A DNA stretch of 64,000 nt. Origin: an uncultured Planctomycetaceae bacterium. Lineage in GTDB: Bacteria; Planctomycetota; Phycisphaerae; SM23-33. A program made the position numbers and the translations under genes. The first letter of the stretch is position 1; each line of letters opens with the position of its first letter. The notes under the pieces were generated by a model, which saw only the letters and a list, made by a program, of their open reading frames with translations, had not been told where the DNA came from and searched no databases. The DNA lies in assembly GCA_964385465.1 (NCBI GenBank), contig CAYLPJ010000003.1, forward strand, positions 148,626 through 212,625, given 5' to 3'. Of this stretch, positions 11,751 through 61,563 are shown piece after piece.

Positions 11751-11779
11751 GCCGACGCGTCGATCGCAGAGGAGCCACC

Positions 11780-12705: not shown

Positions 12706-13473
12706 ATGACCACGATGAACCAGACCTCAGCCCGGATCACGGCGGCCGCTCTGCGGTGCATCGACCTCGGCCGCGCTGCGTACGCGCCCACGCTTGCCCT
12801 TCAGCAGCGGCTGGTCGATGCCGTCGCCCGCGGGGCCCTCGGACCGCATCTGCTGCTGGTCGAGCACCTCCCGGCGGTCATCACGCTGGGCCGGCGGGCG
12901 CGGGCCGAACATGTGCTGCTTCCGCCGGAGCAGTTGGCCCGACGCGGCGTGGAGGTCCATCATATCTCCCGCGGTGGCGACGTGACCTACCACGGCCCCG
13001 GCCAGCTCGTGGTCTATCCGATCCTCGCCCTGCGCGCCGTCGGGTGCAGCTTGCGGGAGTACCAGCGGCGGCTCGAGGAGGCGCTCATCCGTGCCCTGGC
13101 CGACCACGACGTCCAGGCCGGGCGCGTCGAGGGGGCGACGGGCGTGTGGGTGGGGCAGCGGAAGATCGCTGCCATCGGTATCGCCGCGCGGCGGTGGGTG
13201 ACCTATCACGGCCTGGCGCTGAACGTCACGACCGACCTGCAGGACTTCGGCCTGATCGTGCCCTGCGGCATCACCGATTGCGGCGTGACCAGCCTGGCCG
13301 AGCTGGGCCGACCGGCGTCCGTCGAGCGCGTCAAGCCGGTGCTGGTCCGGCGGTTCGCGGAGGTCTTCGGGTTCGCGCCGCCGGACGAGCCGGCCGTGGT
13401 GTCCGTCGAGGAAGCCGTCGAAGGCGTACCCGCCCCCGCGGAAGGCCGCGGCGGCACGCCCCCGGTGGGCTGA
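12706..13473 (+). CDS. lipB: Lipoyl(octanoyl) transferase
   Basis: ATG at 12706 (MTTMNQ). Hallmark motif RGGDVTYHGPGQLVVYPI. 'KIAAIGI' lysine region. Confidence 0.85.
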   Translation: MTTMNQTSARITAAALRCIDLGRAAYAPTLALQQRLVDAVARGALGPHLLLVEHLPAVITLGRRARAEHVLLPPEQLARRGVEVHHISRGGDVTYHGPGQLVVYPILALRAVGCSLREYQRRLEEALIRALADHDVQAGRVEGATGVWVGQRKIAAIGIAARRWVTYHGLALNVTTDLQDFGLIVPCGITDCGVTSLAELGRPASVERVKPVLVRRFAEVFGFAPPDEPAVVSVEEAVEGVPAPAEGRGGTPPVG

Positions 13474-19700: not shown

Positions 19701-19930
19701 GGCTGGCGCATACGATCCTTTGTACGCGAATCTCACTTCTGCCCAGGTCAGTTGGACGACAACCGAGATACGAGGGCCACCTCGATCCCCGCTGCGCCGG
19801 CTCCTCCTTGGAGGAACCCTTCCAGCCAGCGCCGATCCAGCACGTCCGGCCGATCTCCATGGCGGTACCGCCCCGTTGCGGCGCGCAGGGTTTCGGTCTC
19901 GATGTACCCGGAGGTCTTCACGGACATAGA

Positions 19931-19936
19931 AGGAGG
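19931..19936 (+). promoter_or_regulatory. Shine-Dalgarno AGGAGG for the giant gene
   Basis: AGGAGG lies 7 nt upstream of the ATG at 19944. Confidence 0.5.
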
Positions 19937-19943
19937 CAGCATC

Positions 19944-37900: not shown

Positions 37901-40900
37901 CGACGACGACAAGCGGCTGAACAACTTCATCCAGGGCGTTCCCGGCACCATGGAGACGTTCGCCGACGGCGGGGTCATCGAGATCATCACCAAGAACTCC
38001 GTCGTGCTGGAGGGGCGTACCTTCGTCCAAGGCGAGGGCGCGCGGGTCACGATCAAGCCGGGCACCTTCTTCGAGCTCGTGCAGATCGCCGGGCAGATCA
38101 GCTCCGCCGATGCCGACAGCCTCATCGAGATCGAGGCCCCCGAGGCCGTCTACGTCAACGGCGAGGTCCTCGCCGGCGTCGAGTGGCAGGGCGGGGTGAA
38201 GGTCGTCACCGGCGAGGGCGCCGACGTGACCGTCAATACCCCGCACGAACTGCGGATCTTCGGGGCCATCACGTCCACGGACGTCATGGAACTGACCGGC
38301 GGCGCCGACCAGGACTGGAACGAGCGCGATCCGCAGGACGCCAGCATTCACCTGACCGGGCAGCTCACCTCGCTCGACGACAACCGCCTGCTGAAGCTCC
38401 AGGGCCCCGACGACGTCCTCGTCGAGGGCAGCATCTTCGTCCGCGGGCGAAACAGCGGCCTGCTCATCGACTCCGGTCAGCGCGTCAAGTTCGCCACCAG
38501 CTTCGTCGAGGTCGAGGACGGCATCGACATCTACGGGCGGGGTGAGTCCACCGACGTCGACACCGGAATCACGTCCAGTGTCTTCGTGGACGCCACGGCC
38601 GTCATCACCAGCTTCCAGAACGGCAGCAACATTCACATCGAGGGCGCCGGGGACGTGGACATCCTCGGCACGGTCCTGGCCGGCGGGGCGATCGGCCCGA
38701 CGGGCGTGACGTGGTCCGGCACGGACAGCGAGGCGGTCGTCACCGCCGGCGAGCAGGTGTACGTGGACAGCGGCATCCTCGCCAGCGACACGGTGACGGT
38801 CGTCGGCGGCCCGGCCGGCGAGGACGACGCCAGCCTCGACCCCGCCAACGACGGGCTGGCCCCGGCTGACCAGCGCCGCGTCAGCGTCGTGGTCACCACC
38901 GCCGGCGGCATGACCGCCGCGGGGCGCACCTCCGACGGCTCGGCCGGGCTCATCCGCATCTTCGGCGCCAGCGGCGTGGAGATGATGGGCCACCTCTACA
39001 GCGGCGCCACCAAGGGCCTGCTGTTCGACGGCGAGGGCAACCTCATCAAGGAGATCATCGACTGGGAAAGTTCCGTCGGCGGCGACGTGTCCATCGAGTC
39101 GCCCGGGCAGGTCTTCATCGGCGGTTGGGCCGAAAACCAGGCCACCGAGGTCGTCCTCGACAGCGACGTCACGCTGCATATCATCCTGGACCCCGACGGG
39201 TCCCCCACGCCCGGGAGCATCACTCTCGACGCCGACGACACGACGAACTTCACCCGCCTGCACGAGTTGCGGCAACTCGTCTCCGATGCCCTGACGGCCG
39301 AGTTCGGCGGGGACATCGACGTGCAGATCGAAAACGACCGCCTCGTGTTCGTGGCGGACCAGCCGTTCACCATGGAGTCCACCAGCACCAACGCCGACCT
39401 GCTCGGCCTCGGCGGCGGGGACCTGGAGGGCAACGAGGTCGTCCCCGACGCGGAGATCGCCGCCGACGTCGCCCCGCCGAGCATGGCCCTGAGCTCCGAC
39501 GCGACCCTCGTGCTCAACGACGGCGAAGGCGACGCGCTGGGCTCGATCACCGTGACCGCCGCCGAGACGGCCGGGTTCACGCAGCTCAGCGAGCTGATCG
39601 CCTTGTTGAATGACAAGCTCAACGACGCGGGGCTGACCGAGATGCTCGCCCGCGACGGCGGCGGGTTGCTGGCGCTGACCGGCGAGTTCGACTTCGAGAT
39701 CGACGAGACCTCCTCGAACGCCGACCTGCTGGGCTTCGACGCCGTCGCCGCCCCGGCCACCGTCGCCAGCGCGCGCGACGCCTCCACCTGGGAGGTTACC
39801 GCGGTGCACTCGCTGTTCGGCAGCGTGGTGGAGACCGGCGGCTACATCGCGGCCAGCGACACCATCTCGCTGTTCAACTGGGACACCGCCGAGCACCCGT
39901 ACATCGGCGGGGAGGTGGGCGTCCGCATCCAGGGCTCCAGCGAGTTGACCACCCACGAGGACGAGAGCCTCATCGAGGTGGACTCGAAGCTCGACGCCGA
40001 GATCGAGGGACACCTCATCGCCGGCGGCGAGGTCGAGACCATCCGCGACGCCGAGACCGGCGGGTTCATCGGCTCGAGGCTGATCGACTTCGGCACGGAT
40101 ACCGACGACACCGAGATCGACATCCAGGCCGAGCACCAGGTGCGGATCGGCACGACGCTGAAGGCCGGCGGGAGGATTCACGTCGTCGGCGGGGACGACC
40201 CCGTCGAGGGCGACCCGGGCGACCCGTTCAACTTCACCGGCTCCAGCGTCCTGATCTTCGGCTCGGCGAAGCTGGAGACCTGGGGCGAGAACAGCGCCAT
40301 CGACATCGAGGGCACCGGCGACATCAAGGTGCTCTCGCCCACGCACTTCCACGAGGTCGAGCCCGAGGAGTGGGCCAAGGGCCCGCGGGCGTTCCTCGTC
40401 GGCGAGGGCCAGTTTGCCCTCGGGGGCGTCCTGCCCGCCGACGTCACGCTCGACATGCGCCGCCGCGACGGGTTGGGCGGGTACCTCACCGAGTCGATCA
40501 CCCTCTCGGCCGGAGACTACGCCAACGATGCCCTGATCGTCACCTCCCTGGAAGCCGAGTTCGCCGCCAGTACGGACTTCACCGACGTGCAGGTGAGCAA
40601 CCCGGGCCGCTACCTGGTGCTGGATGCGCCGTACGACTTCGACATCGAAAGCACGTCGGTCAACCTCGACCTGCTGGGCCTTGCCAGCGTGCAGACGGCC
40701 CGGGTGGTCTATCCCGAGGCCCGGGTTGTCGGCGACGTGAACATCCCGACGACCGGTCGGCTGGTCGAGGATGTGGTGCTGGACCTGAGCATGGACGACG
40801 GCGTCGGCGGGACCATCGACGATACCGTCACCATCGCCGCGGCGGACACGACCGGCCATACCACGCAGGCCGAGCTGCTCACGACGATCAACACGGCCCT

Positions 40901-43900
40901 GGACGCCTCGGCGTTCGCGGACATCGACGCGGTGCTGCGCGACGGCAAGATCGTGCTGACGACCCTCGGGCTGGACTTCACCGTCAAGGGGACCTCCCAG
41001 AACGTCAACCTCCTGGGCCTCCGCGGCGAGTGGGAGACCGAGGAACTCCGCGATCCGGCCGTGCTTACGCCAGCCAGCGACGCTCCGACCACCGGGCAGC
41101 TCATCCGCGACCTCGTGCTCATCATCCGCATCGAGGCGACGGACCTGGAAGACGAACTGCTGGGCGCGGTGATCGTCTCCGCCGCCGACACGACGGACAA
41201 CACGACGCTGGTCGACCTGGTCACCGACATCAACAACGAGTTGACCGGCACGGACGTGCCCCGGTACGTCGGCACGCGGACGTTTGGAGACTACCTCACC
41301 GCGTCGATCCGCGACGGGAAGCTGCTGCTGACCGGCACGCACGAGTTCAAGCTCAGGGAAGCCTCGCAGGCGTTGGAACTGGTCGGCATGGACTCCGGCG
41401 AGGAACTGCCCGCCACCGAGATCTTCTTCGACGCGATCCTGGCCGCCGACGTCGACCTCCCCGCGGCCGTGCTGACCGACCCGGTCACCCTCGACCTGAT
41501 GGTCAACCGCAACGGCTCGGTGACCGAGGACACCGTGACGGTGCCCGTGGACGGCAGCAACTCGACGCTGGCCGACCTGGTCGCCGACGTGGACGCCGCC
41601 CTGACGCTGGCGGGCTTCGGCGATGTCGAGGCCGAGCTCGAAGGCGACCGCCTGGAGCTGGTCAGCCACTGGGAATTCACCGTCAAGGGCACGAGCACCA
41701 ACGCCGACCTGCTGGGCCTTACGACCGTAGACGGCGGCGCGGACGTGGCCGCGTCCCGCCAGGCGTCGATCTTCGAGCTGCTCGGCCCGCGCGACGTTCC
41801 CACCACCGGCGTCCTCGCCGAGGACGTGGCGCTCGAGGTCGAGGCCGTCGACAGCGACGACGTGGTCACCGCGGCGACCGTCACCGTCGCCCGCGAGGAC
41901 ACGCTGGGCAACGCGAGCATCGCCGAGCTGGCCGCGACCGTCGGGGCCGCCTTCGCCGAGGCCGGACTGGACATCCAGGCCGCCGAGGACAGCGGCACGA
42001 TCGTGCTGAGCAGCCTGACGGTGGACTTCGAGGTCTTCACCACCAGCGAGGCCGCCGACCTGCTGGGCCTGACGGACGTCCATGGCGGGTCGGACGTCTC
42101 CTCCGACCGCCCGGACGCCACCTTTGAGCTGGTCCCCGACGACGAGCTCTGGTCCACCGGCGTGCTGCCCGACAACGTCGAACTGGCGATCACACGGGCG
42201 CTGGAGGACCCCAACGACGACCCGGCCCACATCAGCCCGGACCTGCCCGAGGAGATCGACCGGGACGAGGATAACGTGGTCACCGGCACGGTGACGATCA
42301 GCCGTTCCGACACGCTGGACAACACCGCCGGCAGCGAGGCCGACCGCCTGGAGGCTCTCGCCGAGGACATTACCGCGGCGTTCATTCGCGACGGCTTCCG
42401 CCAGATCACCGCGTCGGTTGACAGCGGTAAGATCGTGCTGTCCAGCCCGTATGCGTGGTCGATCGGTGAGGAATCCGCCGAGACCGAGCTGCTGGGCATC
42501 ACCACCGTGCCGACGCCCGAGCTCGAGGCCGAGCGCCCGCCGGAGACCTACCAGGTCACCGGCGTCGACAGCATGATCAACGGCGTGCTCGACGACGACA
42601 TCACGCTGGACCTGTCGATCGACGACGGCGGCGGCGGGACATTCGACGGCGAGGTCAGCCTGCCGGCCTCGGCGACCGACGGGACCGACAGCGGCACCAG
42701 TGCCAATGCGGGCATCGCCGATCTCGTCGCCGACCTCAACGCCGCCCTGGCCGATACCGAAATCCCCGGCCACCCGGGGCAGTTCTTCGGCGACGTCATC
42801 GAGGCGGCCGCCGTCGGCGGCTTCGACGCCAGCGCCGGCGGGGCAGGTGTCGGCTCGGCTGCCGACGCGACCGGGCGGATCGTCTTCGTCGCCGACGAGG
42901 CCTTCACGCTGACCGTCGACGCCGCGGACAGCCTCGATCAGCTCGGCTTGGCCAACGGCACGCAGAGCTCGGCCGCGACGGACCCGGACTGGGAGGTCGC
43001 CGCCTCGGCGGACCTGCCCTCCGACGGCGTGATCACCGGCGACGTGACGCTGCGGGTCACGCTCGACGACGGCGGCTCGGACCTCGACTTCACGGTCACG
43101 CTGCCGGCGGTCGACACCACCGCCAATACCTCGGCAACCGAGCTGCTGCTGGACCTCCAGACCGCCTTGGCGGCCACGGAAGTCCAGGACGTCAGCGAGG
43201 CCGAGTCCACCGGCTCCTACGCCAGCCAGTTCGTCGTCACGCAGATCCGGGACGGCAAGCTGGTGCTGGTCAGCGAGCTGGAGTTCGAGATCGACGGCGA
43301 CGCGTCATCCAATGCCGCCCTGCTCGGCCTGGCCAGCGTCTCCCCGGGCAGCGACGTGGCCTCGGCCAAGCCGCCGGTCCGGCAGGAGCTCCCGGCCGAC
43401 AACGTCCTTCCGCCGCGGCGCTCGTTCACGCAAGACGTGGTCTTCGACCTGCGGATGCTGCCCGAGAATCTCATCGCGAGCATCCCGGTCAACGAGTACG
43501 AGGTCACCGTCGCCGCCGCCGACACCGAGAGCAACGCGGACATCGACGACCTGGTCGCCGACATCGACGACGCGCTGCTGGCCGCGATCGGCAGCCAGGA
43601 TGTCTGGGCGCAGTACCAGGGCGGCAAGCTCTCGCTGGTCAGCTACACGCCGTTCCAGCTCGAGTACTCCTCGGAGAACGAGGGGCTGATGGGCGTGACG
43701 GACATGCCCAACGAGCTCATCGCCGCCAACCGCGCCAGCCAGGACGGCGAGCTGCCCGAGGACGTCACCCTCGTGGTCTGGGTGAATCTGGGCACGAAGA
43801 AGATCGTCGGCGAGGTAACCATCTCCGCTGCCGACACGGCCGACAACCCCGCGGGCAATGGCATCACGGACCTGCTGAACGATATCCAGGACGCGCTGAA

Positions 43901-46900
43901 CGGCGCCGTGCCAGGCGCCATCAGCGGCGGCAGCTATTACGACCTGGACGGCAACCCCTACGACCCGGCGGACTTCGCCGACGACCCGGTCACCACCGGC
44001 GGGATCGCCGACCCGCTGATCCGGATGAAGCTCAAGCACGGCAAGCTGCTGTTCACCAGCCAGTACGAGTTCCGCATCTTCGACGAATTCACCAACCCGG
44101 CCAACCCGACCCCGGCGCTCCAGCACCTCGAAAGCGCCAACGTCCAGCACCTCGGGCTCGACTCGGTCGCCGACGGCGACACGGCCGTGTCCAGCAGGCC
44201 CTTCAACATCCTCGCGCCCGCCGCCGGGTCGGAGGTGAGCTTCACCTCGACCGACGCCGGCGCGGAACTGTACATCGCCGGGGCGGTCAAGAGCGACCGC
44301 ATGATCCAGATGTCCGGCGGGCCGGAAGGGCTGGACCTCGACTGGTCCGGGCTGCTGGAGACCGTCGACGGGCCGATCGATCTGGACCTCGGCACCAGCG
44401 GGCACCTCAAGGGCGACCTGACCGCCGGCGGCGACGAGGGCGACGTGATCCTCGCCGCCGACGACACGCTGCTGATCAACGGCATCATCCGCGCCGACCG
44501 TGACATCGACCTCTCGGCCGGGCACGCGCTGGGCGGGTCGGCTTCCACCGACAGCATCACCATCGACAAGACCGCCTGGCTGGTGACGACCGGCCCCCCG
44601 GACCTGGATCAGCAGGTCACGGTGGACGGCTACAAGCGGGTGGTGGTCGACGGGCCGATCGGCTCGCAGCAGCTCGACGAGCCGCGGATGCTCGGCGACA
44701 TTCACGTCGTCAGCCAGACGCACGACGTGGTGATGACTGCCGAGTCCGGCTGGCTGGAGACGGACGGGCGGATCGTCGTCGAGGGCGACACGGTGGATGT
44801 CGCCGGCGTGATCAAGAACGGCGACACCTCGGCCCCCGCGCCCGCAGACCCGAGCAACCCGCTTGCCGAGAACTTCGAAGTCGTCCTCGACGCGGACACC
44901 GTCGTGCTGCTGACCGGCGACGTGGACGCCCTCGGCTCGGTACTGATCGACTCCCCGAACGCGATCCAGATCGCCGGGTCCGTCGAGGCCGGCGGGATCG
45001 AGACGTTCGAGTTCATCACCGAAGACCGCGACTTCCTCACCGCCGCCGACGAGCAGGTCCGCGTGCTCGCGCCGGGCATCACCGTCGGCGGGGTGACCGC
45101 AACGGTCGAGGCCGGCCAGGACTGGCCCGATACCGACGACGACAGCAACCCCGACCTGACCGTCGGCGACAGCTACCCGCTGGGCGGCACCGTCGTCGGC
45201 TCGGGGCAGGTGCTCCTGCTGGCCGGCGCCGGCGGGATCGAGGTCGCCGCCGCCAGCGAGGTCCGCACGCGAAGCGACGACAGCGAGATTACCCTCCAGG
45301 GCGACTTCATCGATATCCTCGGCTCGCTCTACGCCGGGGCCGAGCGCGGCCGACAGGCCGTCGGCGAGGACCCCGAGGACCTCACCTGGCTGGGCGAGAG
45401 CGCGGGCATCACGCTGGACGCGGCCGAGATGGTCACCTTCGGCGGCGAGGACACGGCCACGGACCTGGACGTCTTCAACGGCTTGGCCGACACCGAAGGC
45501 GAGACGATCACGCGCGGCGGCTCGGCGCGAGCGACCGGGGACGTGGTGATCACTGCCGACGAATCCGGGGACCAGCTCGTGCATATCAACGGGCTCAGCG
45601 CCATCGTGACCGACGCCGAGGCGGTCGCCTCGCCGAGCCCGGGCGCGGCCAGCTCGGTGGACATCACCGCCGGCGACGGCGTGCAGGTCCACGGCGTCAT
45701 CCAGGGCCTCGACCCCGACAGCGACGTGACCATCGTCTCCGGAACGGGCCTGCTGCTTGTGGACGGTTTTGTCGAGGGCGGGCGGGACGTCACACTCACC
45801 GGCGCGACGGCCGGCGACCTCAGCGTGCTGGTCACCAAGCTGCTCTACGAGACCAAGACCGAGACGGTGCCCACCAGCGACGGCGGCAGCGGCGAGTTCA
45901 ACCTGGACATGAACGGCGACCACGTCGACGACTACGGCTTCCTGCTGGAGGTCAACGGCTCCGACGAGATCGTCGTCGACGGCAGCGGCCAGCCCGTCCG
46001 CGTGACCGAAGGCGGCGTCGAGCAGCTCGGCGAGGGCATCGTCTATCTCGTCGAGGACGAAATGGGCGATCCCGTCACCGTGGACAAGGAGGGCCACGAG
46101 CTTACCGAGCACGCCGGCCGGTACTTCCTCGTAGACGAGGCCGGGCAGTTCCTCGACGACCAGGGGCGCGTGATCAACGAGGACGGCCAGCTCCTCGATG
46201 CGATGGGCCGCCCGGTCAACGAGGCCGGCTACCTGATCGACGCCAACGGCAACCTCATCGACGAGTTCGGCGACGCCATCACCATCTACGGCGACCGCGT
46301 CAACGCCGACGGGCTGCTGCTGGACGTCAGCGACAACCTGATCAGCCCCGATGGCTGGCGGATCAACGCATCCGGTGAGTTGGTCAACGCCGGCGGCATG
46401 CCGCTGAACGGCGTGGGCGAGATCCGCACCGTCGTCGAGATCGACGGGACGGACTACCTCGCCGACGAATACGGCAACCTCGTGGACGACGAGGGCAACC
46501 TCATCGACGAGGACGGCTACCTCATCAACGAGCGCGGCGAACGGATCACCGCCGACGGCCGACCGCTGACGCACCTCGACGATCCCGTCGAAGGCAGCGA
46601 CCGCGTCGAGAACCCGCCGACGCCGGAGGCTCCCGTCGCCGGCGACGACCGCAAGACCGGCGGGAGCATCCAGGAGGGCGACGCCCTCAAGTCCACCACC
46701 GGCTTCGTCATGGTCGACCTGCCCCAGCGCCGCGGCGGGGGCGTGGTCAACGGCACGGGGCCGGCCTCGACGGTTACCATCACCGGCGACCACGACGTGG
46801 AGATCCACGGCATGGTCGGGCAGGTGTACCTCGACGAGGGCACCGCCGCCCCGGCCGTGGACACGGTCGAGGTGACCATCACGTCGTCCGAGGACGTCAC

Positions 46901-49900
46901 CATCCTCACCGACGCGCTCGTCAACGCCCGGGACGGCGTCGAGGTCAGCGGGGAGAACGTCTGGGCGCTGGACGAGAGCGTCACGATCACCCGGGCGGAC
47001 CACTCCCGCACGGCGTTGACGGCGACCGGCACGCTGCCGGACGGTGGGACGATCCACGTCGCCCGCAGCCAGATCTACTTCTTCCGCGCGTTGGTGGCCT
47101 CGGCGGGCGAGGTGGAGCTGACGGGCAAGGAAATCAGCGTGTACGGCACGGTGGAGGTCGAGGGCAGCGAGCGCAACGGCGACGGCGACCCGGCGCGGGC
47201 ACGTCTCCAGGCCGACCGCAACGTGGTCGTCCGCGGCGAGGTGCTCAGCGGGGCCGACATCGACATCGACGCCGGGCTGGTCGATCCGACCGGCTGCGTG
47301 GTGGTCTCCGCCGAGGGCAGGCTTGCGGCGGGCTATGGCACGGAGGCGGTCGGCGACATCATGCTTGACGCCGCCGGCGAGGTGACGCTGCTGAGCTACG
47401 ACGACGACGCCAACGACGACCTCCAGTTCGCCGCGCCGTACGTCACCTACGAGCCGGTGTTCGTGGACGTGGTGACCGGCTTCCGGCGCGTCGAGGACGG
47501 CTTCATCCAGCGCCCGGTCGTGCACTACATCCCGACGATCACGACCGAGCAGACCGGCTTCATCGACGTGAAGGTCGGCAGCGAGTTCGGCAGCGCCGAG
47601 GTCCGGCTGTTCCAGGACGGCTACTGGTCGGACACGGCCCCGGCGGACGAGCGGTTCCGCGAGTACTTCATTCCGGGCGTGGACTACGAGATCGACGACC
47701 TCGACTGGCCCGGCAAGGCCCCGGACGAGAACCCGGGCCTGTATCGCAAGGTGGCCCCCGGCGAGTACGAGCTGATGGACACCTCGACGTTTGACCTGAT
47801 CGGCGAGGTCACGAACTACGGCGGCCCGCCGATCGACCCGGGCACGACGTTCGCCCAGGGCGTGACGATCGACGGGGCGGTCAACGCCGTCCGCCAGGAC
47901 CGCACGCCCACCCTCGGCGGGCTCTTCTCGCCGGGCAGCACCACGGTCGGCGGCGGGGAGCTGCCTCTGCTGACCGGCCAGTTTGCCGGCGAGGAGTCGG
48001 TGAGCTACGCCGACGTGCTGACCACCATGGAGAGCGAGGTCTACCTGGTGATCGACGATGTCTTCGTCCAGCAGACCTACAAGCCGTGGGACGAGCTGAC
48101 CGCCACCGAGAAGGCCAACGCCATCCTGGATCACCTCGGCTACCGCAAGCTGTTCGACGTGCGGTTCCTCGAAGAATTCGAGAAGACCGTCTATATCACC
48201 AGCCCGAACGACCGGTTCGAACTGGAGCGCGACTCGGCCATCACGGACCGTTTCGACGGCAAGACGGTCAACGAGATGGTCGAGGAAGAGAACGCCACGC
48301 GGGTCAAGGGCGTCAACTTGAGCTTCGCCGACGGCGAGTCCGTGGTCGCCCTCGACGAGCTGGCGGCGCTGAATGCCGGCAACGGTGAGTTCGCATTCAC
48401 CGAGGCCTCGCCGGCCTTGGAAGGCGTGACCTTCCAGGACAGCGGTGGCGAGAAGAAGTTCGTCCCCGGCGTGGTCGTCGACGGCGTCTTCCGCGTCACG
48501 CCCTCCGACAACCTGGCTATCCGGCCGGACTGGTCCGTCACCACCGACAGCTACACGATCACCAAGAAGTACTTCGACTTCTGGTTCCCCGAGTTCATCC
48601 CCTTCGACCCGGCCGTGCATTACGACCCCGGCGAGCACGCCAGCGTCGAGGAAGCGGCCTACCGCCATTGGACGCCACCGTCGGAGATGGTGGACGAGGT
48701 GCTGGACGGCGTGCCCCCGGAGGACCACGAAGAGGCGCTGGAGGAGTTCAGCGAGCAGTTCTTCATCGCCGGGCGGGACTACGACGAGGAATACGCCAAC
48801 CCGGCCAAGGAGGACAGCGGCGACTACATTGCCAGCTTCTTCGAGCGGGAGGACACGATCCTCGCCGACGGCGACTGGGAGAAGGTGTACGGGACCGAGA
48901 CGTCGCTGGGGCGGATCAACCGCAACTTCGAGGGCATCCCGACGGTGCACCTGTGGGAGACGGACCTGACCGATCAGGACCGCGAGGTCTTCGAATACAC
49001 GCTGGACGACGGCACGGAAATCTTCCTGCGGGCGCCCGAGCAGTGGTGGAGCGAGTACGAGGTCACCGCCCTGGGCAACGACCGCGTGGACCCCGACGAC
49101 AAGAAGCTCCAGTATGTCGGCAACGTCGAGACGTACGACGAGGAGGTCGGGCAGATCCGCGAGGTCGCCCAACTGGAGTACATCCAGGAGTGGTCCTCGG
49201 CCGTGCCGCATAAGCCGAGCAACCCCGAGGAAGGCGACCTGTGGGTCGTGGATGACTACGACGACAGCCCGGGACGCTGGGTGGTCTACCTCCGCGACGA
49301 CCCGCACGAGGTCTGGCCCGACGGCGATCCGACGGCCTACGAGCAGTACAGCATCAACGACGGGCGGTCGGTCAGCGAGTTCGACCCGCCGTATGCCGAC
49401 ACCGTGTTCACCGGCTTCTACGGCCTGCTGGCCGACGCGGCGTTCGCGCCGCTGGCCGCCGGCGGGCTCGAGCTGACCGAGGCCTTCCTGCCGGAAGGCA
49501 CGGTCGCCAGCCTGGTCACCTACGACAACTCGGTGAAGCTCGATTACGACTTCGAGGACTGGGACACCGGCGAGCCGGGCACGGTGGACGACCAGGGCAG
49601 CGTCTCGGGCTTCACGGGCGACAACTGGGCCGAGGGCACGGACGCCAACGGGCGGCTCGTCTACGGGCAGATCAACGCCGGTGACGAGGAGGACGGCCTG
49701 GCCGTCGCGCAGACCAACATCAACCTCGAGCAGTTGAACGACGATCCGCGCACCGAGCACGACGTCGCCGAGATGCGCCGCTACGAGGGGCGCGACTACT
49801 ACCTGACCATCGGCCACTACGACTGGTACGAGGCCGGCAACGTGCGAAGCTGGCCGTGGCATCTGGCGGTCGTCAACGACGCCGCCGAGAACGCCCTTAT

Positions 49901-52900
49901 CCGGGACATGATCTCCGCCGCCGACACGTCCGCCTGGCTGGGCGGGTACGACCTCAACGGCGTCAGCCACAACTCATGGTCCATGGAGTGGGTCCACGGC
50001 TCGGGGATCAGCAACGGCTCGGGCTACAGCAACTTCCACCCCTCCGAGCCGAACAACGAGGGCCCGTACAACGACGAAGACCACCTCCAGATGTGGACCA
50101 GCGGCTACTGGAACGACCTCAACGCGGTCGAGGAGCTGCGGGCCGTGCTGGAACGCGAGCCGGACTGGGGCGACCCGTTCGACGGCGACGAGACCCAGCA
50201 CGACTTCATCTACAAGATGACCACCGACTGGCGGGCTATCGAGGACGTCCGCTCGGACATCACCTACCGCGCGTTCACCGAGGCCCACGACATCATCGAC
50301 AAGCGCCCGCGGTACGAGACCATCGAGTCCGAGGTCCCCGTCATCAAGATGGAGCAGGTGACCAACTGGACCTACGAACCGGTCGTCGAGCAGGTCCTCG
50401 ATTTCGCCAGCAGCGCCGTGCCCGCCGACGGGCCGGGAAGCCTGGCGATCTTCGACCGCCAGGCCCTCTCGGCCACGGGCGACATCACCATCAACGCCGG
50501 CTCCGACGTGCTGGTCCGCTCCAGCGTGGCCGCCGGCGAGACCGACGGGGCCATCTCCGTCAACTCCAGCGGCGGGGCGGTCACGGTCGGCACGGACATG
50601 CCCGCCGAGCCGAAGCTGTACGACATGATCCACCTGACCGCCGGAGAGGCGATCGACATCGACGCCGCGGGCGGCGCGGTCGAGATCGGCGCCACGGCCG
50701 AACTGCGGACCGAAACCGACGCCCCGGCGCCGCCGAACGGCAACAGCGGCGGCGAGCCGGTGCAGGATATCTCCGTGGACGCCTCCGATGCCGTCCGCAT
50801 CGACGGACAGGTCGCCGCTCGCGACAACGTCGCCGTCACCGCCGCGGCCGACGTGACCCTCACCAGCAGCCTCCAGGCCGTCAACCTCATCGCCGCCGAG
50901 GCCGGCAACGGCGGCGGGGCCGGCACGGTCTTCGTCCACGACCCCGACGCGCCGCTCGACGGCGAGTTCGACGAGGACGACCAGAGGCCGGCGATCGGCG
51001 GCTTCCTCACCGTCACCGGCACCGACGGCGAGATCCGCCTGACGGCCGGCGCCGCAGGTGGGGACATCTCCCTCATCGACGCCGAGTTGGAGGCCGACCT
51101 GATCACGCTGTCGGCCCCGGCAGGCGAAATCCTCCAGCCCGCGGCCGTCACGCCTCCGGGCGATGGGGACACGCCGACCACCGGCGGGCAGCTCCGGGCC
51201 GTGACACTCGACGCCGACGCCGGCGCGGGCATCACGCTGGAGAACCTCCACGTCGGCGAGGTCACCGCGGTCGTCACCGGACCCGGCGACGTCGTGCTGC
51301 ACGACACGGATCTGGCCGGCGTGGCCGGGGGCGCCGATCCCGCGACGGCCGGGCTGGACCTGGTCAACGTCCGCACGGCCGACGGGTCGATCGACGTGAC
51401 GGCCCTGGGCAGCGGCCTGGTGGCCACGGACGTCCGCAGCCTCGGCGGCGGGGACGAGGACGACGTGACGCTCAACGCCGAGATCGGCGCCGGGGGCTCG
51501 ACATCGCTGACGGTGCACCACGTCGAGGCTGCCGGGGATGCAGACGTCTTCCTGAACGTGCAGGGCCAGCTGATCCAGCCGGACGGCTCGGTGAGCGCCG
51601 ACGAGGTGACGGTCCAGGCCAACGGCGCGACGGAGATCCACACGCAGGCGTCGTCGATCGACATCGACCTGGCCGCGCCGGGCAGCCTGGTGATCGTCGG
51701 CGATTCGCCGACGCTGACGCTGGCGAACGTCCGCGTGCTCAACGGCGACTTGACGGTCATCAACGCCGGCGACATCGACGCGCAGAACGTCGAGCTGGTC
51801 ACCGATTGGAACACCTCGAAGGTCCCGCCGGAGGCGAACGTCATCCGCCTGGAGACCACCGAGGGCAGCGGCGGGACGATCACCGTCGGCAGCATCGTCG
51901 GGGGCACCTACGCCGCCAGCGAGGCCGAGGCCGACGCCATCCGCCTGGACATGCTCAACTCGATCCTGCGGAAGATCGATCCCGCCGGCATCCCCGCCGA
52001 GTTCCTCACCGACGGGACGGACGGGGAGGGCGACCCGATCCAGTTCGTCGAGCTGACGCAGCCCGAGGCGGACGACCTGGCGGCCATCGTCACCGACGAC
52101 TTCGCCGCCGATGGCGAGCTCATGGCCGCCGCCACGGCCTTTACGATGTACAGCCGTGTGCTCGACGTCCTGGGCGTGGCCTACGAGGGCACGTACGAGG
52201 AGACCGACGAGCAGGCCGTCGAGGACGAGGCGCGGTCGCTGTTTACGCTCAGCCGCGGGCTCAGCTCGGCCGGGCGCGTGGAACTGTACTCCGACGGCGC
52301 CATTACCAGCCCCGTGCCGCTGGCCCCGCTGGGTGCCGGGCCGATGCCGCCGTCCAACGGCGTGGGCATCGTGGCCGACACGCTCGTCGCAGTGGCCGGG
52401 TCCGACATCACCGGCCTGACCACGGCGGTCAATCGGATGGAGGAGGTCTGCTCGATCGGCGGGTCGGCCTCGGACGTCCGCGACGTCGACGGCATCGGCG
52501 AGCTCTCGCCCGGGGTGAAGGTCGACCTGGCCGAGGCCCTGGCCGGATCGCTGGCGATCACGGCACAGAACGCGCTGATCGTCACCTCGGTACGGACGCC
52601 GGCGTCCGACGCGCAGTTGTCGCTGACCAGCGAGCTCGGCGGGCTGTTCGTCGAGCGCAACGGCGGGGGCAACGCTTTGGAGTCCGGCGGCGGGATCAAG
52701 CTGGAGACCCTTGCGGCCGACCGGGACCTGACGGTCACCGGCCACGTCCAGGCCGGCGGCAAGCTGGAGTTGGCCACGCGGGGCACCGTCAGCTCGCTGG
52801 GCCAGGGCGTGGACCTCGACGTCGGCGACCTGTCGGTGGACTCCGACAGCTCGGTCGTGCTGTCCGGCGAGTTCAATACCCTGGGCGAGGTGGACGTCGT

Positions 52901-55900
52901 CAGCGACGGGAACATCGCCCTCAGCCAACTGGATGAGGCCTTCGAGGGCTTCCGCGTTTCCAACCAGCGGTTCTCGCTCCAGCAGCGAATGCTCCAGACG
53001 CTGGGCGACAACCTCGATGCACAGATTGACGCGCTCTCGACATACCAGGCCCTGATGGCCGCCGCGGCCAGCAGGGAGGCCGGCCAGGGCGACGTGCTGA
53101 GCACGCTCGAGGCCCAGCAGCTCCAGCACCTCGTGCGGATGCCGCTGGAGCTCCAGCATCAGCAGCTTCAGACGCAGCTCGCGGACCTCGGCAGCCTGCT
53201 GGAGGTCCAGGACCAGTTGCCGGATACGCTGGGCGAGATGGAGGGCTACGATCAGATCGTTCAGCAGCGCGACCAGGTGACCGACCAGCTTCAGAGCGCT
53301 CAGAGCACCCTTGGGCAGGTCCGGACGGACCTGCTGGAGATCATCGGCGATACCGACGACCTCGTCGCCGACCTGGAGGACGTGCAGACAACGATCGCCG
53401 ACCGTCAGGCCTATCGCGACGGGCTCGGCGGCGTGCTGAGCGACATCCAGGCGGAGATCAACAGCCGCCCGGACTACACCCCGCCGGCCCTGAACGGCGG
53501 CGAGGAAGGCGCGCCCGACCTCAGCCTCGACGCGCTGAACAGCGTGGACCTCGACGAGCTCAGCGACGAGCAACTCGGGCGGCTCCACCACGACGTCCAG
53601 GGCGTCGCCGACGAGGTGGACGGCGAGCTCCAGGACCTCGGCCAGCAGGTCGAGACGCTCCAGGACCAGATCCACGCCAACCAGGGCGACCTGGCGTTCG
53701 TCCGCGAGGACCTCTCGGCCGTGCGGGACACGGTGCAGGGCCTCGGCGGTCAGCTCGACGCCCTGGACGCTCAGATCGCCGCACACCAGGCCGCCCTGGC
53801 CGAGATCGAGACGATCATCGGCCTCAGCGATCCGGCGGCCATGGACCCGGCTGTTCGCGACCTGGACGACAACGCGGACGTGCTCAGCGACACGATCAAC
53901 AGCGGCGTCGACGCGCTGCGCGACCAGCGCCTGCTCGAGACCGTCAACGCCAGCCTGGCGGACGTCAACAGCCAGATTGCCCGCGTCAATGATGCGATCG
54001 ACGCCGTGGCCCCGCTGACGGACACGACCGACTTCGGCGTGCTGGACTCGGGTATCCGCGGGCTGACGGCCTACCAGGACGTGCTCAGCGGCGCCATCCT
54101 GGACGGCATCGCCGGCCTGCCGGACCGGACGTACTCCGAGCTTCAGGCGCAGGTCGCGGACGTCATGGCGGATATCCAGCAGGTCGACCAGGCCCTCGCG
54201 GCCCTGGAAGCCATCCAGGGCGCGTCGGGCTTCGCCGTTGTCGACCGCAACGTCCGCAGCCTCGCGAGCGTCCAGGACCTGCTGACGCCGACGTACCAGC
54301 AGATCGTCTCCGACGTGACCGCGCTGCCGACGTACTCCAACCTGCTCGAAGAGATCGGCACGATGCAGCAGCAGTTGGAGCAGGAGCGGCCACTTGACGA
54401 GGTCCAGGCCGATCTCCAGCAGGTGGGCAAGCAGCTCGACACCCTCGCTGCGGAGATCGCCCCGATCGAGCTCCAGTTGATCAAGCTCGCCTATCGCTAC
54501 CTCAGCCACCAGAAGCGCGACATCCTGCCGAGGGTGATGGCGTGGCACGACGAGATCGGCAACCGCCTGGGCGGGCGCGTCGGCAGCCCCGAAGACGTGG
54601 AGCCCGATCCCGAGGCGTTCCCCATCGACTGGGACTTCTACGATCTCGGCCGGATCCACGGCTTCGATGCCCATCTCGACCAGATGGACGACGAGCAGTT
54701 CGGCAAGTTCCTCGACGGGCTGGAGCCCGCGGAGCTGGCGGCTGTCCAGGACGTGCTGGCCACCCAGGCGAGCAAGTCCGAGGGCCTGGACAAGGAGCTT
54801 CAGGACCTCGACGCCGCCGGCGGCGCCGACCCGTTGGACCCCGAGCTGCCCCAGAACCGGTTCGACCTGCTGCCGCAGTGGGAGCAGTTGGACAAGCAGC
54901 GCGACGATCTCCTGCTCCAGCAGGCCGACCTCCAGGCAGAACACGACCGTATCGTCGCATTGCAGGACCAGTTGGATGCCCTGCAAGGCCGGCGTGACGA
55001 CCTCGAGGGCGCCCTCATCAGCGCCCAGGAGTTCGCCTTCAGCGAGGCCGACAACCTCCAGGGCATCCGCGGAGGTCTCCAGGAGCAGCTCAACGGTCTG
55101 AACACCGACCGGCGGAATCACGAGGGCCAGCTCAGCGACCTCCAGGGCGACCTGTCCCCCGAGTTGAGCCGTCTCTACGCCGAACGCGAGGACCTCACCG
55201 GCCAGCGGAACACGCTGGAAGCCGAGCAGGGAACCGTCACCGGCTACATCTTCGGGGTCGTGGAGTTCCTGCCCGGCGAGCAGAGCCGCCTGAACGAGGC
55301 CCTCGGCGGCATCCAGCAGCAGCGCGAGGCGGTCAACACGCAGTACCAGGACGCCTTGGCCGAAGAGAGCACGTTGGAGCAGCAGGAGACGCAACTGGTC
55401 GCCGAGCGGGACACGCTCCAGACGCAGGTCACGCAGATCGAGGAGGATATCTCCGGCTACCAAACCACGCTGGAGGACCTGGACGACCAGGAGGCCGCGC
55501 TTCAGACCGAGCTGGACGGCATCCTCCAGACGAAGCAGACCGAGCGCGTCGGCCTGCGGGACGACCTGGTCGGGGTCCAGCAGCTCCAGGCCGACTACGC
55601 TCTCGTCGCCCAGGATTTCCAGTCGCTCCAGCACGGGCTGAACCTCGGCGCGATGGCCGGGGAGTTCCGCGGCAACGTCCTCGATGACATGCAGCGGATG
55701 AGCCGGCTCCGCGCGGATCTCGAGCAGATGCGCCAGACGCAGGAGAGGCTGGAGTACGGGCTGCGGCGGACGCAGATGGGCGGCGACGGGCTGACCAGCA
55801 TCAGCATTCGCGCCCAGGGCTTCAGCGAGCAACTGCTCTCGGCCGGCGTGGAGCTGTCCCTGGCTCAGCCCGGGGACGACTCGGAGGACCCCGGCGACAA

Positions 55901-58900
55901 GGTTGCCCAGGACGACTTCTCCGGCTGGTACCTCTACACGCATTCGGACACCGAGCAGACGCACTACCGCGACGCTCGGGGGACCGAGAACGACATCGAG
56001 GACGACGTCTTCCGCGTCCGCGAGTTCAGCCCGTTCTACGTCGACGAGCAGGCCTACTACCGGCGGCTGGACGACGTCGACGCCACGCCGGGCGAGCTCG
56101 GCGACGACGAGGAGACGTTCTACGCCTGGGACAGCGCCGTGCTGGAGACGTTCTACGTCTTCGACGGCACGTACTCGGTGCAGAAGTTCGCCGGTACGAC
56201 CAGCGAGGAGCGCACCGAGGTCCGCCCCGACACCGGCGAGGAATTCACCTTCACCATCGACAGCCCGCTCTACGACGTGCACGACTACCGTGCCCACTTC
56301 CTCGCGGACTCGCCCGATACCGAGTTTGCCGACGCCGAGCTGTTCGTCACCAGCGACGACGAGACCGGCGAGCACGTGCGGGCCTTCCAGGACATCCTCG
56401 ACGACCTGTCGGCCGAGCTGGGCGAGGAAGGCCGGCTCATCGTCCTCTACCCGGGCCAGACGCTCGATGACCTGGATGTCGGCGAGGTCACCGAGGATGA
56501 CATCCTGGTGACCTTCCTGGACTTCACGCCCATCTACCGGCAGGTCTCCAACAGCGAGATCGCCTTCGACGACCCGCAGTCCCACGGCGAGCAGGTGTTC
56601 GAAACGCTGCCTTCGCTGCTGACGGAAGTCTACCGCGGCGGCGTCGAGCTGCTGCCTGTCGAGGCCCCCGAGGCCGGCAACGTCTTCACCGGCGGGCTGC
56701 GGGCGTCCGCATCGGAGCTGATCGAGCTGCTGGCGACCGACCGGCTGACCGGGCTGGAGACCAACGCGCTGCTGTCGGCGCCGACGGTGCGGCTGGCCAG
56801 CGGCGACGTCCTGGAACTCGGCGGGCTCATCCTCGCCAGCGAGTCCGTCCAGGTCGATGCCGGCGGCGGGCTCGTGTTGTCCGAGGACGCCCGCGTCAAG
56901 GCCGGCGCCGTGAACGTCAACAGCGCCTTCGGCGACGTCGTCGGGCGCCAGGGCAGCGTCATCGAGGCCGACACGGTCGATGTCTTCGGCGCCGGGATGG
57001 TGGACATCGTCACCGACGCCCGCGCCGTGGCCGCGTCGGCCGGCCTGTCCGGCGACGTGGTCGTCACCAACATCGGCGACGATCCGGTGACCGTGGAAAC
57101 CCAGACCGACGGCGGGACGGTGGATGTGCGGTCCGATGGCACGATCCAGGCGGGCAACGTCGCCGGCGGCGACGTCTCCCTGATGGCCGGCGGCCGCGGC
57201 GACGTGCTCATCGGGCAGGTCGACGCCACCGGCAACGTCACGCTCGACGCCGCACGCGGTATCGGGTCGTACACGCCGCCGCCTCCCAACGGGCCGCTCG
57301 TGCCCCTCATGGCCGAGCCGCGGCTCAACGTCGGCGGCGACCTGAACGTCATCGCCGGGCTCGGCGCGGACCTGCCGGGCGGCACGGTCGGCGGCGAGAG
57401 CTCCGTTACCGACAACGTCAGCCTGGTGATCGACTCGCTCGACGACCTCCCGGCCACGGGGCCGGCCCACATCGCCGTTGACGGCGACGTGGTGATCGAG
57501 ATCGCGCTGACGCTCCACTACGACCTCACCATCGAGGCCGACAACATCATCTTCTCCGGCGCCGGGGCGATCCTGAATCCCGGCGGCGAGACCAGCCTCA
57601 AGGCCGACGGCGCGGTCATGCTCAACGGCATGCCCTCGCAGGACAACGACGGCGGGAAGGAGGGCACGGTCGTCCTGTCCGGCGAGAGAGTCTCCATCGA
57701 GGCGGCCGAAGTCCTCGGCGGCGGCGAGCGGCTCATCCGCGCCGACCTGCTCCGCGTCGTCACCGAGACGGACCTGGCCCTGATGACCGACGTGGACACC
57801 CTCGAGGCGATCATCACCGGCCGCGGGGACCTTCGCGTCGAGGCGGGCGGCTCGATCGAGCTGCGGGACGTGCAGGTGCACGACGGCAGCGTGATCGTTG
57901 AGGCCCCCGGGGACATCGTGGCCACCGGCGTGGTGTTCGGGACGGACCGTTACGCCAACCGCCTGAGCCTCCAGGCCGGCGGGGAGCTGACGCTGGGCAA
58001 CGTGGTCGTCGGGCGACTGATGGGCACCGAGCTCGAGACCGGGGCGGGGCTGACCAACGCCGGCGGCGTGCTGGACGTGGAGGTCACGCAGGACGACGAC
58101 AGCGTCGTCGAGGACCGGCCCGGCAGCTTCACGGCCCGGGTGACTGACCCGACGCACACCTACGAGCCGGGCGAAACGGTCGAGATGGGGATCGAGTTCG
58201 GCGACGGCTCCCAGCAGATGCTGGACGTGGACGTCGCCGGTCCCCGGGTCGAGGTCATCGGCCCGCCGAGCGAACGGTTCGGCGGCGTGCAGGACTACAG
58301 CGGCATGGGTGAGGCCGTCGTGCTGGCCGACGTCAACGCCGACGGCCTCGCCGACCTGATCCTCGGCGAGGGCCGCCACGACCTGCCCGACGCCGAGGAC
58401 ATCGGCCGAGTGCAGGTCCGCCTCGGCTCGCCCGACGGCCTCGTCGACGACCCGCTGACGCTCTGGGGCAGCGAAAGCGACGACGAGTTCGGCCAAAGCA
58501 TCGCCGGCGGCGACGTCAACGGCGACGGCGTCGACGACATCATCGTCAACGCTCCCGGCTACACGAGCCTGCGGACCACCACCACCGTCCAGCCGGACGG
58601 CACGGTGACGGTCGAGGAGTTCGAGGTCGACGGCGGGTTGTTCGTCTACTACGGCTCGGACGCCGGCCTGAGCGTGGAGCCGTCCTTCGTGCAGCTCCCG
58701 GCCATCCAGAGCATCGCCCCGGCCGGGGACGTCAATGGCGACGGCATCGACGACATCCTGGCCATGGACCCCTCGGCGGAGGTCGACCGGGTCATCGACG
58801 GAGAGCTGGAGACGCTCCCGTTCGCCGGGCGCGTGACGCTGCACCTCGGCTCGGCCGAGGGCCCGGCCGCCGAGCCGGTCTGGAGCTACGAAGGCAGCGA

Positions 58901-60869: not shown

Positions 60870-60963
60870 GCCGGCACGGATGCCCGGCCACTCCCCGCGA
60901 AGATACGGGCCTGCCGGGCTGCTACAATGAATGGTCCCCTTAGAGGAAGAGGAGGATGCAGAC

Positions 60964-61563
60964 ATGAAATCCGGTTATTGGATCCTGCCCGCGTGTGTGC
61001 TGCTCGCCGCGGCTACCGGCGCGAGGGCGGACTACTTGTTCCACGCCGACAACGTGGTCGGTGCGTTTGCCGGCACGGATTTCGACGTGACGGTGATGCT
61101 CACCTCCGATGACTCCAACGCCGCCGACAGTGTGGTCTTCACCGTGCGGTTCGACCAGCCCGGACTGCTGCTCCGCGGGTACCAGTGGCAGGACGTGTTC
61201 AGCGCGGGCTTCGATCTCAGCGAGCCCGGCGCGGCTGCGCTGAGCGGGGGGCCGGTGTCGATCCTGGCCGACACGCATGAGTCCACCACCTATGTCGGCG
61301 ACATGGATATCTACCTCGACGCCTTCTCTCCGGTAGGCTCGTTCGACAGCGGTCAGCTCGTGACACTCCAACTCAGCGTGCCGTGGGACATGGCGTACGA
61401 CGAGATCACCGCGGACATCCTGCCCGACCAGGTCTACAACGACGGGCAACCCGTCGCCGCGCTGCCCTCATCCTTCACCATCACCCCCGAGCCGGCCGCG
61501 CTCGCCGTGCTGGCCGCCGGAGCCGTCGGGCTGCTCCGTCGGCGGAGGCACCGAGCGGCGTAG
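60964..61563 (+). CDS. PEP-CTERM sorting-domain protein (putative exosortase substrate), secreted
   Basis: ATG at 60964 with a GGAGG 8 nt upstream. N-terminal signal peptide (WILPACVLLAAATGARA). C-terminus 'TITPEPAALAVLAAGAVGLLRRRRHRAA*' is PEP, then a hydrophobic span, then an Arg cluster. Confidence 0.7.
   Translation: MKSGYWILPACVLLAAATGARADYLFHADNVVGAFAGTDFDVTVMLTSDDSNAADSVVFTVRFDQPGLLLRGYQWQDVFSAGFDLSEPGAAALSGGPVSILADTHESTTYVGDMDIYLDAFSPVGSFDSGQLVTLQLSVPWDMAYDEITADILPDQVYNDGQPVAALPSSFTITPEPAALAVLAAGAVGLLRRRRHRAA

Follow-up and report, generated by a model that had tools for sequence, protein, structure and literature searches.

What the compositionally distinct stretch of about 950 residues within a giant protein of an uncultured Planctomycetaceae bacterium contributes to that protein is the question raised by this locus. 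The locus lies in a 64,000-nucleotide (nt) stretch of contig CAYLPJ010000003.1 (assembly GCA_964385465.1, positions 148,626 to 212,625), called the window in the following, in which an open reading frame (ORF) of the forward strand encodes 13,705 amino acids (aa; Table 1). A first-pass annotation of the bare sequence had singled out nt 47450-50350 as an aromatic- and Lys-rich globular "head" that includes a C-type lectin-like domain; with the conversion nt = 19752 + 3(aa-1), the flagged stretch corresponds to aa 9233-10200. The analyses described here point to this head as the probable sugar-binding, ligand-binding part of a giant, acidic, Cys-free and presumably extracellular surface fibre, in which it is bracketed by two conserved junction modules, termed a and f.

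A C-type lectin domain in a bracketed head

The identity of the lectin domain was established by profile, fold and motif comparisons, which confirmed that the flagged stretch includes it. The single window sequence reached 20.4 bits against the Pfam family Lectin_C (PF00059; cut-off 22.6) and matched SP-D in a phmmer search with an E-value of 2e-4, and nine of the 14 members of the protein family described below were matched by Lectin_C (best E-value 1.6e-5). A profile built from 13 family sequences matched CD23 in the PDB with an E-value of 1.3e-14; altogether, 139 PDB sequences were found at E<=1e-3, and all 60 of those listed are C-type lectin domains. In line with this, AlphaFold2 (AF2) modeled aa ~9994-10164 with a predicted local distance difference test score (pLDDT) mostly above 90, and all 50 matches listed by Foldseek against the PDB, among them CD23, DC-SIGNR, ASGR and MGL, are C-type lectin domains as well (probability 1.00; TM(target) 0.7-0.8 for single-domain entries).

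The residues of the principal Ca2+/sugar site, Ca2+ site 2 of animal lectins, are present (Table 1). In the alignment of 14 sequences, the Glu of the EPN motif is found in 13 (locus L002 has QPN), and its Pro and Asn are invariant. C-type lectins with an EPN motif preferentially bind sugars whose 3- and 4-hydroxyl groups are equatorial, namely mannose, N-acetylglucosamine (GlcNAc), glucose and fucose. The EPN-bearing domain of the head is predicted to bind such sugars in a Ca2+-dependent manner, by which the module gains a testable function, i.e., Ca2+-dependent binding of sugars of the mannose/GlcNAc type. Cysteines are absent from the head and, consequently, the two canonical disulfides (C1-C4 and C2-C3) are lacking. 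Disulfide-free C-type lectin-like domains are known from bacteria. The domain combines the sequence similarity, the fold and the EPN...E...WND residues of C-type lectins with an absence of their disulfides, and the latter tells against strict canonical membership, not against the fold or the superfamily.

Short V/I/T/G/D-rich repeats of a type typical of beta-solenoids continue on both sides of the head, and the stalk made up of them may well be a beta-solenoid; weak matches to FapA-solenoid and Fil_haemagg were obtained in family members. The transition between stalk and head is formed by modules a and f, which are conserved, ordered and each continuous with the stalk repeats, with an AF2 pLDDT below 50 for both. 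Together with adjoining stalk residues, module a matches 117 sequences (cluster representatives and loci) and module f 96; searches of Pfam and NCBIfam with module a yielded no match. Over 20 columns (hhalign, E 8e-6), the N-terminal end of the module-a profile can be aligned with the stalk residues that close the module-f profile, and this stalk part also matches weakly at many sites along the giant protein. The assumption that a and f are mutual duplicates was rejected, since what they have in common are these 20 columns of stalk repeat only. A copy of the pentapeptide TYEPV is present at either edge of the head, at aa 9231-9235 (nt 47442-47456) and aa 10208-10212 (nt 50373-50387), the second copy reading xYVPV in relatives; the two copies could be paired strands closing the head. 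A run of short repeats of the form "G-x-L-I/V-D/N" (such as YLIDANGNLIDEFGDAI) directly precedes the stalk flank at nt ~46090-46570 (aa ~8780-8940), with a near-threshold match to DUF3659.

When 1.84 billion cluster representatives were searched exhaustively with HMMER, 272 matches were obtained at E<=1e-3, which belong to three classes: fragments of the close family from every part of the head, C-type lectin domains that stand alone, and numerous large proteins, the longest of 7,376 aa, in which modules a and f alone are matched. In 34 distant giant proteins a is followed by f at a distance of 270-625 aa, compared with 780-1,100 aa in the close family. An alignment of 28 inserts between a and f of the distant proteins (A9) matched the head profile of the window family over aa ~9700-10142 (hhalign Prob 99%, E 2e-18). 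As the distant heads have no counterpart of the linker (aa 9326-9439) or of the aromatic-rich block (aa 9475-9720), both of these segments are best regarded as family-specific expansions. Directly upstream of f, a C-type lectin-like domain was recognized in about 9-10 of the 28 distant heads by the family hidden Markov model (HMM) and/or a G[EQ]P[NDS]...W[NYD]D motif. Three to four others contain a domain of the beta/gamma-crystallin or Inhibitor_I36 type at this place, one contains DUF5648, and the rest contain unrecognised sequence. A domain that varies at the payload position is the pattern that would be expected of an exchangeable binding module, and at least 34 other large proteins contain such a bracketed head, with differing payloads of lectin type. 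In the giant protein of the window, module a, module f and the lectin domain each occur exactly once. A less probable possibility, which goes further than the evidence just given, is that the a...f bracket is an undescribed and widely distributed "cassette holder" of solenoid-type giants from many bacterial phyla, whose conserved core offers interchangeable lectin-type payloads at a single site, and that the ~245-aa aromatic-rich domain which this core would have gained in the window family has a new fold and its own ligand-binding or catalytic function.

Conservation, composition and anatomy of the head

A word-indexed search of 5.8 billion proteins retrieved a few contig-truncated fragments with 36-40% identity, and a scan of the GTDB representative genomes with two head motifs led to 14 loci. 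These are assigned to Planctomycetaceae, Pirellulales (two loci), Mucisphaera, Phycisphaerae (two loci), Anaerohalosphaeraceae, KSB1, Roseibacillus, Desulfobacterales, Spirochaetota, Eisenbacteria, Burkholderiales and one unclassified bacterium, so that the phyla represented include Planctomycetota, Verrucomicrobiota, KSB1 and Spirochaetota. At each of the 14 loci, the matching ORF extends past at least one end of the DNA examined. The 13,705-aa protein is collinear with the giant ORFs of the loci over aa ~5500-13400 (33-57% identity), and the head segment is found at the equivalent position in 13 collinear giant ORFs of other genomes. The head is thus one part of a conserved giant-protein family; the head itself is not conserved in any unique way, but its junctions are the most conserved segments. 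With 37-60% identity retained among giant proteins from several phyla, it can certainly be taken for a functional, folded entity. Several family copies or fragments (P0001, P0003 and loci L010, L011, L012 and L014) are labelled as Halobacteria archaeon, Gammaproteobacteria, Desulfobacterales, Spirochaetota, Eisenbacteria and Burkholderiales, which may be due to a horizontal spread of the giant gene or to mis-binning of metagenome-assembled genomes.

The distinct composition of the stretch, which had first drawn attention to it, was borne out by statistical comparison of aa 9233-10200 with the rest of the protein. Trp accounts for 2.69 vs. 0.66% of the residues (odds ratio 4.2, p=3e-8), Tyr for 4.86 vs. 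1.46% (3.4-fold, p=4e-11), Phe for 4.96 vs. 3.34%, Glu for 10.3 vs. 6.6% (1.6-fold) and Leu for 6.0 vs. 11.7%, with Ala and Gly lowered as well; for Trp, Tyr and Phe together the values are 12.5 vs. 5.5% (p=2e-15), which ranks first among all 968-aa windows of the protein. With about 21% Asp and Glu the head is still strongly acidic. The label "Lys-rich" given in the first-pass annotation is justified relative to the nearly Lys-free remainder (2.27 vs. 0.94%, 2.5-fold, p=4e-4), yet not by the absolute level of just 2.3%. Similarly, the stretch is non-repetitive, as had been stated, in that self-BLAST found no internal match for it, but this property is not unique to the head, since no tile between aa ~8950 and 12750 matches elsewhere in the protein. 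Both peptides quoted by the annotation are present in frame within the giant ORF (aa 9605-9643 and aa 9763-9791), and the limits deduced from conservation in the 14-sequence alignment (aa 9222-10222, nt 47415-50417), from which the identities in Table 1 were also taken, are very near to those originally proposed. The DNA is indeed locally less GC-biased, with a GC content of 0.664 in the head vs. 0.692 and 300-nt dips to about 0.62-0.65 at nt 48100-49000. As the GC content at codon position 3 (GC3) is unchanged (0.950 in the head vs. 0.944 in the rest of the gene), the dip stems from the amino-acid content at codon positions 1 and 2 and not from foreign DNA.

Between module a and the lectin domain, the head consists of alternating variable and conserved parts. 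A helical insertion of ~124 aa follows aa 9295 in seven of the 13 relatives from genomic loci and in four aligned fragments. The LGY motif is common to the distant heads: it matched A9 with hhalign Prob 94.5% (E 8e-8), and direct phmmer matches were obtained in P0040, P0084 and P0117. An equation of the distant motif with the "WEKVY" region of the window, as given by a long hhalign alignment, was rejected because aa 9440-9474 fits better (Prob 94.5 vs. 48%). In the aromatic-rich insertion the alignment displays the motifs YFDFWF, FFIAGxDY and YIASFFxRED, and in the shared core GRINRNxEGIPT, LDDGTxIFLRxPxxWW, LGNxR...LQYVGNV, VGxxRxVAQLEYxQxWS and DxDxSPxRWVV...YSIxDGR; a profile of aa 9781-9875 matches 10 of the 34 distant heads. 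The connector that leads to the lectin domain is enlarged by ~34 aa after aa 9951 in relatives, and AF2 placed strands at aa 9959-9973 and 9990-10008 with moderate pLDDT. Invariant residues of the non-lectin head are mostly aromatic, Gly or Pro, or paired charges, and include D9609, D9676, R9699, K9711, R9724, D9752-9753, R9760, D9782, K9784 and E9797.

The ~770 strongly conserved residues outside the lectin domain match no known family or fold. Neither the single sequence nor the 14-sequence profile yielded a match to this part in Pfam, NCBIfam or the PDB, and the same applies to Pfam searches with each of the 14 family heads at E<=1, in which Lectin_C was recurrent and all other hits were isolated noise of solenoid type. 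AF2 modeled aa 9215-10225 from a 30-row alignment with a mean pLDDT of 53.7, the lectin domain and part of aa 9474-9604 being confident. For aa 9470-9900 the mean pLDDT was 58.8, with confident prediction of the alpha/beta subdomain (aa ~9480-9605, ~125 aa) and some helices, and confidence for the core (aa 9721-9875) was low. Fold searches with the models of the non-lectin head gave no match. Most tiles are thus without a confident fold, yet the composition is clearly distinct; of the two observations which, taken together, the first-pass annotation had named as speaking against its claim, one was made and the other was not. Its expectation of further carbohydrate-binding or enzymatic modules found no evidence in the Pfam, NCBIfam and PDB searches, which match the lectin domain alone. 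Conversely, it contained no mention of the conservation of the whole giant protein, of the head being a bracketed cassette with widespread junction modules or of a part of the aromatic-rich sequence being a lineage-specific insertion. The ~770 conserved residues without family or fold are candidates for a new domain.

Table 1. Features of the head and of the giant ORF, with positions in the window.
Feature	Window position (nt)	Residues (aa)	Strand	Characteristics and basis
Giant ORF	19752..60869	13,705 aa	+	in the ORF list; contains the head
Upstream stalk flank	46749..47414	9000-9221	+	solenoid-like repeats such as VTITGDHDVEIHG, VEVTITSSEDVTILTD; sequence; 40-60% family identity
Junction module a	47415..47726	9222-9325	+	YEPVFVDVVTGFRRVEDGF..PVVHYIPTITTEQTGF..VKVGSEFGS..FREYFIPGVDY..DLDWPGK; 64-78% identity
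Variable linker	47727..48068	9326-9439	+	14-38% identity
LGY motif	48069..48173	9440-9474	+	YKPWDELTATEKANAILDHLGYRKLFDVRF; 66% family identity; common to distant heads
Family-specific aromatic-rich insertion	48174..48911	9475-9720	+	~245 aa; alpha/beta subdomain (aa ~9480-9605), KKYFDFWFPEFIPFDP, helical stretch, FFIAGRDY, YIASFFEREDTIL
Shared head core	48912..49376	9721-9875	+	GRINRNFEGIPT..W, LDDGTEIFLRAPEQWW, LGNDR..KKLQYVGNV, VGQIREVAQLEYIQEWS, DYDDSPGRWVV..YSINDGR; 51-75% identity
Variable connector and beta-hairpin lead-in to lectin domain	49377..49763	9876-10004	+	19-54% identity
C-type lectin-like domain, Cys-free	49764..50168	10005-10139	+	profile, AF2, Foldseek, motifs
EPN motif, first part of principal Ca2+/sugar site	50046..50054	10099-10101	+	aligns to EPN of CD23 and SP-D
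ED, Glu ligand equivalent of animal "EDC"	50076..50081	10109-10110	+	aligned to "GEDC" of CD23; nearly invariant
WND motif, second part of Ca2+/sugar site	50109..50117	10120-10122	+	invariant in family
Junction module f	50169..50417	10140-10222	+	DWRAIEDVRSDITYRAFTEAHDIIDKRPRYETIESEVPVIKMEQVTNWTYEPV; 65-81% identity
Downstream stalk flank	50418..50741	10223-10330	+	solenoid-like repeats such as GDITINAGSDVLVRSSV, GEAIDIDAAGGAVEIG; sequence
Duplicated segments of giant ORF, first pair	~19980-21700 vs. ~29160-30700	76-650 vs. 3137-3650		
Duplicated segments of giant ORF, second pair	~26280-28240 vs. ~31280-33060	2176-2830 vs. 3843-4438		

Proposed function of the head and alternative explanations

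We consider it probable that the head serves as the ligand-binding, and specifically sugar-binding, part of a surface fibre. The polypeptide chain would exit the beta-solenoid-like stalk via module a, build a globular assembly of ~1,000 residues and re-enter the stalk via module f. The conserved core of this assembly would carry an exchangeable lectin-type payload, and its outermost functional element would be the EPN-type C-type lectin domain, which may recognize mannose-, GlcNAc-, glucose- or fucose-type sugars exposed on other cells, polymers or particles. The ~770 residues upstream of it might form a pedestal that projects and orients the lectin domain and possibly offers an extra binding surface. 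The RTX repeats, seven FG-GAP repeats and the Big_5, dockerin and PKD domains of the giant protein fit a surface fibre. The lectin domain (~135 aa) or the whole head (~1,000 aa) represents a small expressible target for finding out what such megadalton fibres attach to.

A number of observations weigh against this interpretation. No signal peptide, anchor or secretion system could be identified for the giant protein; genes of a type I secretion system (T1SS) are not adjacent and the C-terminus is without an RTX or T1SS signal. The packing of modules a and f against each other and the projection of the head from the stalk are presumed, with low AF2 confidence for both modules. Two canonical disulfides of the lectin domain are missing, so that its stability and its binding of Ca2+ and sugar are predictions only. 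In addition, ~770 strongly conserved residues are much for a mere pedestal, and, given their identity of up to 78% between phyla, they might have an activity themselves. Finally, the head is located about two-thirds along the chain (about 68-74%) and not at its tip.

This internal position would suit a structural or assembly node, in which the head provides oligomerisation, a hinge or anchoring and ties the fibre to envelope glycans of the producer or to partner proteins. Modules a and f are, furthermore, more conserved than the lectin domain, and the C-terminal dockerin and FG-GAP propeller suggest other interaction sites on the same protein. However, the varying lectin-type payloads in relatives fit target recognition better, and the Ca2+/sugar ligands are kept across phyla, which is why we regard a node function as unlikely. 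An enzymatic activity, one of the possibilities named in the first-pass annotation, is quite unlikely in our judgment. Here, the non-lectin head (aa 9222-10000), especially the aromatic-rich insertion and the core, would be an enzyme of a new family, e.g., a glycan hydrolase or lyase, with the lectin domain acting as a carbohydrate-binding module (CBM) for substrate targeting. In its favor are an aromatic richness typical of sugar-binding clefts and a very high degree of conservation, in which numerous Asp, Glu, Arg, Lys and aromatic positions are invariant, and for giants of other PVC-group bacteria a processing of cell-surface polymers is proposed in a preprint (bioRxiv 10.1101/2023.11.21.568195). 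Yet no sequence or fold similarity to a glycoside hydrolase or any other enzyme family was found in Pfam, NCBIfam or the PDB with the single sequence or the 14-sequence profile, and in the non-lectin head the alignment of 14 sequences shows neither an invariant His or Cys nor a catalytic motif that could be recognised. The aromatic-rich insertion is absent from distant a...f heads, and since these keep the same overall architecture, it is not essential to the general function of the head. Neither an enzyme nor a second lectin is thus positively indicated in this part, though the models were poor. A recent foreign insertion, or an assembly or frameshift artefact, to which the local GC dip to about 0.62-0.66 might point, is refuted by the equal GC3, the continuous frame and the equal position of the segment in 13 collinear homologous ORFs, and its probability is negligible. 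Sugar binding by the head of a surface fibre hence remains the explanation that we prefer.

The giant protein and its comparison with known systems

The giant ORF has a GC3 of 0.94, and the frame of the head is intact and continuous within it. Long ORFs of 2,221-4,055 aa on the opposite strand (30606-42773, 43305-49970 and 49974-58844) overlap the gene; as the GC3 signature is absent from all of them, they are artefacts of the high GC content (70%). The encoded protein is acidic and contains ~0.02% Cys. A hydrophobic segment resembling a transmembrane helix was not seen in its 13,705 residues, and none of the candidate starts (TTG at nt 19752; first in-frame Met codons around aa 51 and 65) is followed by an obvious signal peptide. 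Searched against Pfam in 12 tiles, the protein received very few annotations, namely RTX, FG-GAP, Big_5, dockerin and PKD, with the sub-threshold Lectin_C match as the only one in the head. The RTX repeats, Ca2+-binding nonapeptides, lie mid-protein at aa ~5302-5330 (nt ~35655-35741; Pfam E 6e-11), whereas T1SS substrates carry theirs C-terminally. In the C-terminal region (nt ~58750-60300), seven FG-GAP repeats (E 2e-36) are accompanied by sub-threshold matches to Big_5, dockerin type I and PKD and are followed by a Pro/Ala/Arg-rich tail.

Apart from these domains, two segmental duplications with 30-40% identity (Table 1) and a repeat array at aa ~6450-8050 (nt ~39100-43900; self-BLAST) were observed in the N-terminal and middle parts. 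Downstream of the head, a coiled-coil-like stretch with locally raised Leu and Glu/Arg contents extends over aa ~11100-11900 (nt ~53050-55450; weak matches to Filament, DUF1664, FlxA and a phage scaffold protein). A second aromatic-rich block at aa 12001-12300 (nt 55752-56651; 12% Trp, Tyr and Phe, no Pfam match) may be another globular module. The gene is flanked by genes for a sulfatase, a GNAT acetyltransferase, an efflux pair of the resistance-nodulation-division (RND) type (AcrB and a membrane fusion protein, MFP), the E1, E2 and E3 components of pyruvate dehydrogenase (PDH) and Fpg, which by their annotation indicate a Gram-negative bacterium. A halophile origin of the acidic, low-Lys composition was considered and dropped, as the flanking genes are Gram-negative and the relatives mostly belong to Planctomycetota. 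The downstream ORF at nt 60931-61563 (forward strand, 210 aa, no Pfam match) begins with a signal-peptide-like sequence and ends in a PEP-CTERM-like one (..TPEPAALAVLAAGAVGLLRRRR). It was rejected as a conserved partner gene, since no counterpart was found beside the homologous giant genes in the loci.

With regard to known systems, the lectin domain resembles the carbohydrate-recognition domains of animal proteins (CD23, DC-SIGN/DC-SIGNR, MBP-A and SP-D) in its profile, predicted fold and EPN...E(D)...WND residues, and WLGG stands at the place of their WIGL motif. It differs from them by the absence of Cys, by its bacterial origin and by its position deep within a giant chain (near residue ~10,000 of 13,705). 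The ligand-binding domains of RTX adhesins bud out of stalk domains that are "split" (PMC12077191), and lectin modules are found in giant RTX adhesins secreted by T1SS (PMC6650083, PMC8092209). The protein of the window shares with such adhesins (AhLap, MpIBP, MhLap) the very long, fibrillar, acidic and Ca2+-associated character, a non-repetitive ligand region that interrupts a repetitive stalk, a Ca2+-dependent lectin module and conserved entry and exit segments, here a and f. In contrast to their tandem immunoglobulin (Ig)-like extenders, its stalk is solenoid-like without Big repeats by Pfam: the whole-protein scan gave a single sub-threshold Big_5 match near the C-terminus and no array of bacterial Ig-like (BIg) extenders. 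Moreover, its RTX repeats are internal (aa ~5300) and not C-terminal, its head of ~1,000 aa has a large pedestal compared with budding domains of ~150-300 aa, and its lectin is a C-type lectin domain in place of a PA14 or CBM domain. Since it has no Ig-like extender array, no C-terminal RTX beta-roll with T1SS signal and no T1SS genes among the flanking genes of the window, it is not a member of the RTX-adhesin class. Likewise, for the filamentous haemagglutinin (FHA)/TpsA type no two-partner secretion (TPS) or haemagglutinin match was found in the window protein, and Fil_haemagg was matched in one of the 14 relatives with an E-value of 0.28.

Bdellovibrio fibres carry exchangeable tip domains, one of which has a C-type lectin fold (PMC10769870). 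Like these MAT fibres and like phage tail fibres and tailspikes, the window protein and its relatives combine a conserved scaffold with alternative binding domains at one site. The Bdellovibrio fibres, however, are trimers of ~1,000-aa chains with C-terminal tips, and their lectin-fold tip has lost the Ca2+ motif, whereas here an internal payload between a and f has retained EPN and WND; evidence for trimerisation was not seen in the window protein. Genes exceeding 10,000 codons are frequent in Planctomycetota and the wider PVC group, and the functions of their products are almost uncharacterised (PMC12673574). The giants portrayed there and in bioRxiv 10.1101/2023.11.21.568195 are similar to the window family in size (>10,000 aa), in the largely planctomycetal origin of the relatives and in their Ca2+-binding and surface domains. 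Those from Omnitrophota, "Archaeovorin" and "Dockerin-type," have other domain sets, and the window family, its a...f head and the lectin payload do not appear in the passages of the two papers that were searched by term. In the literature searched, a description of the window family, of the a...f bracket or of the payload variation was not found. While the lectin domain itself is ordinary and a lectin-bearing giant fibre is already known, the bracketed head of ~1,000 aa with its ~770 unassigned conserved residues is new.

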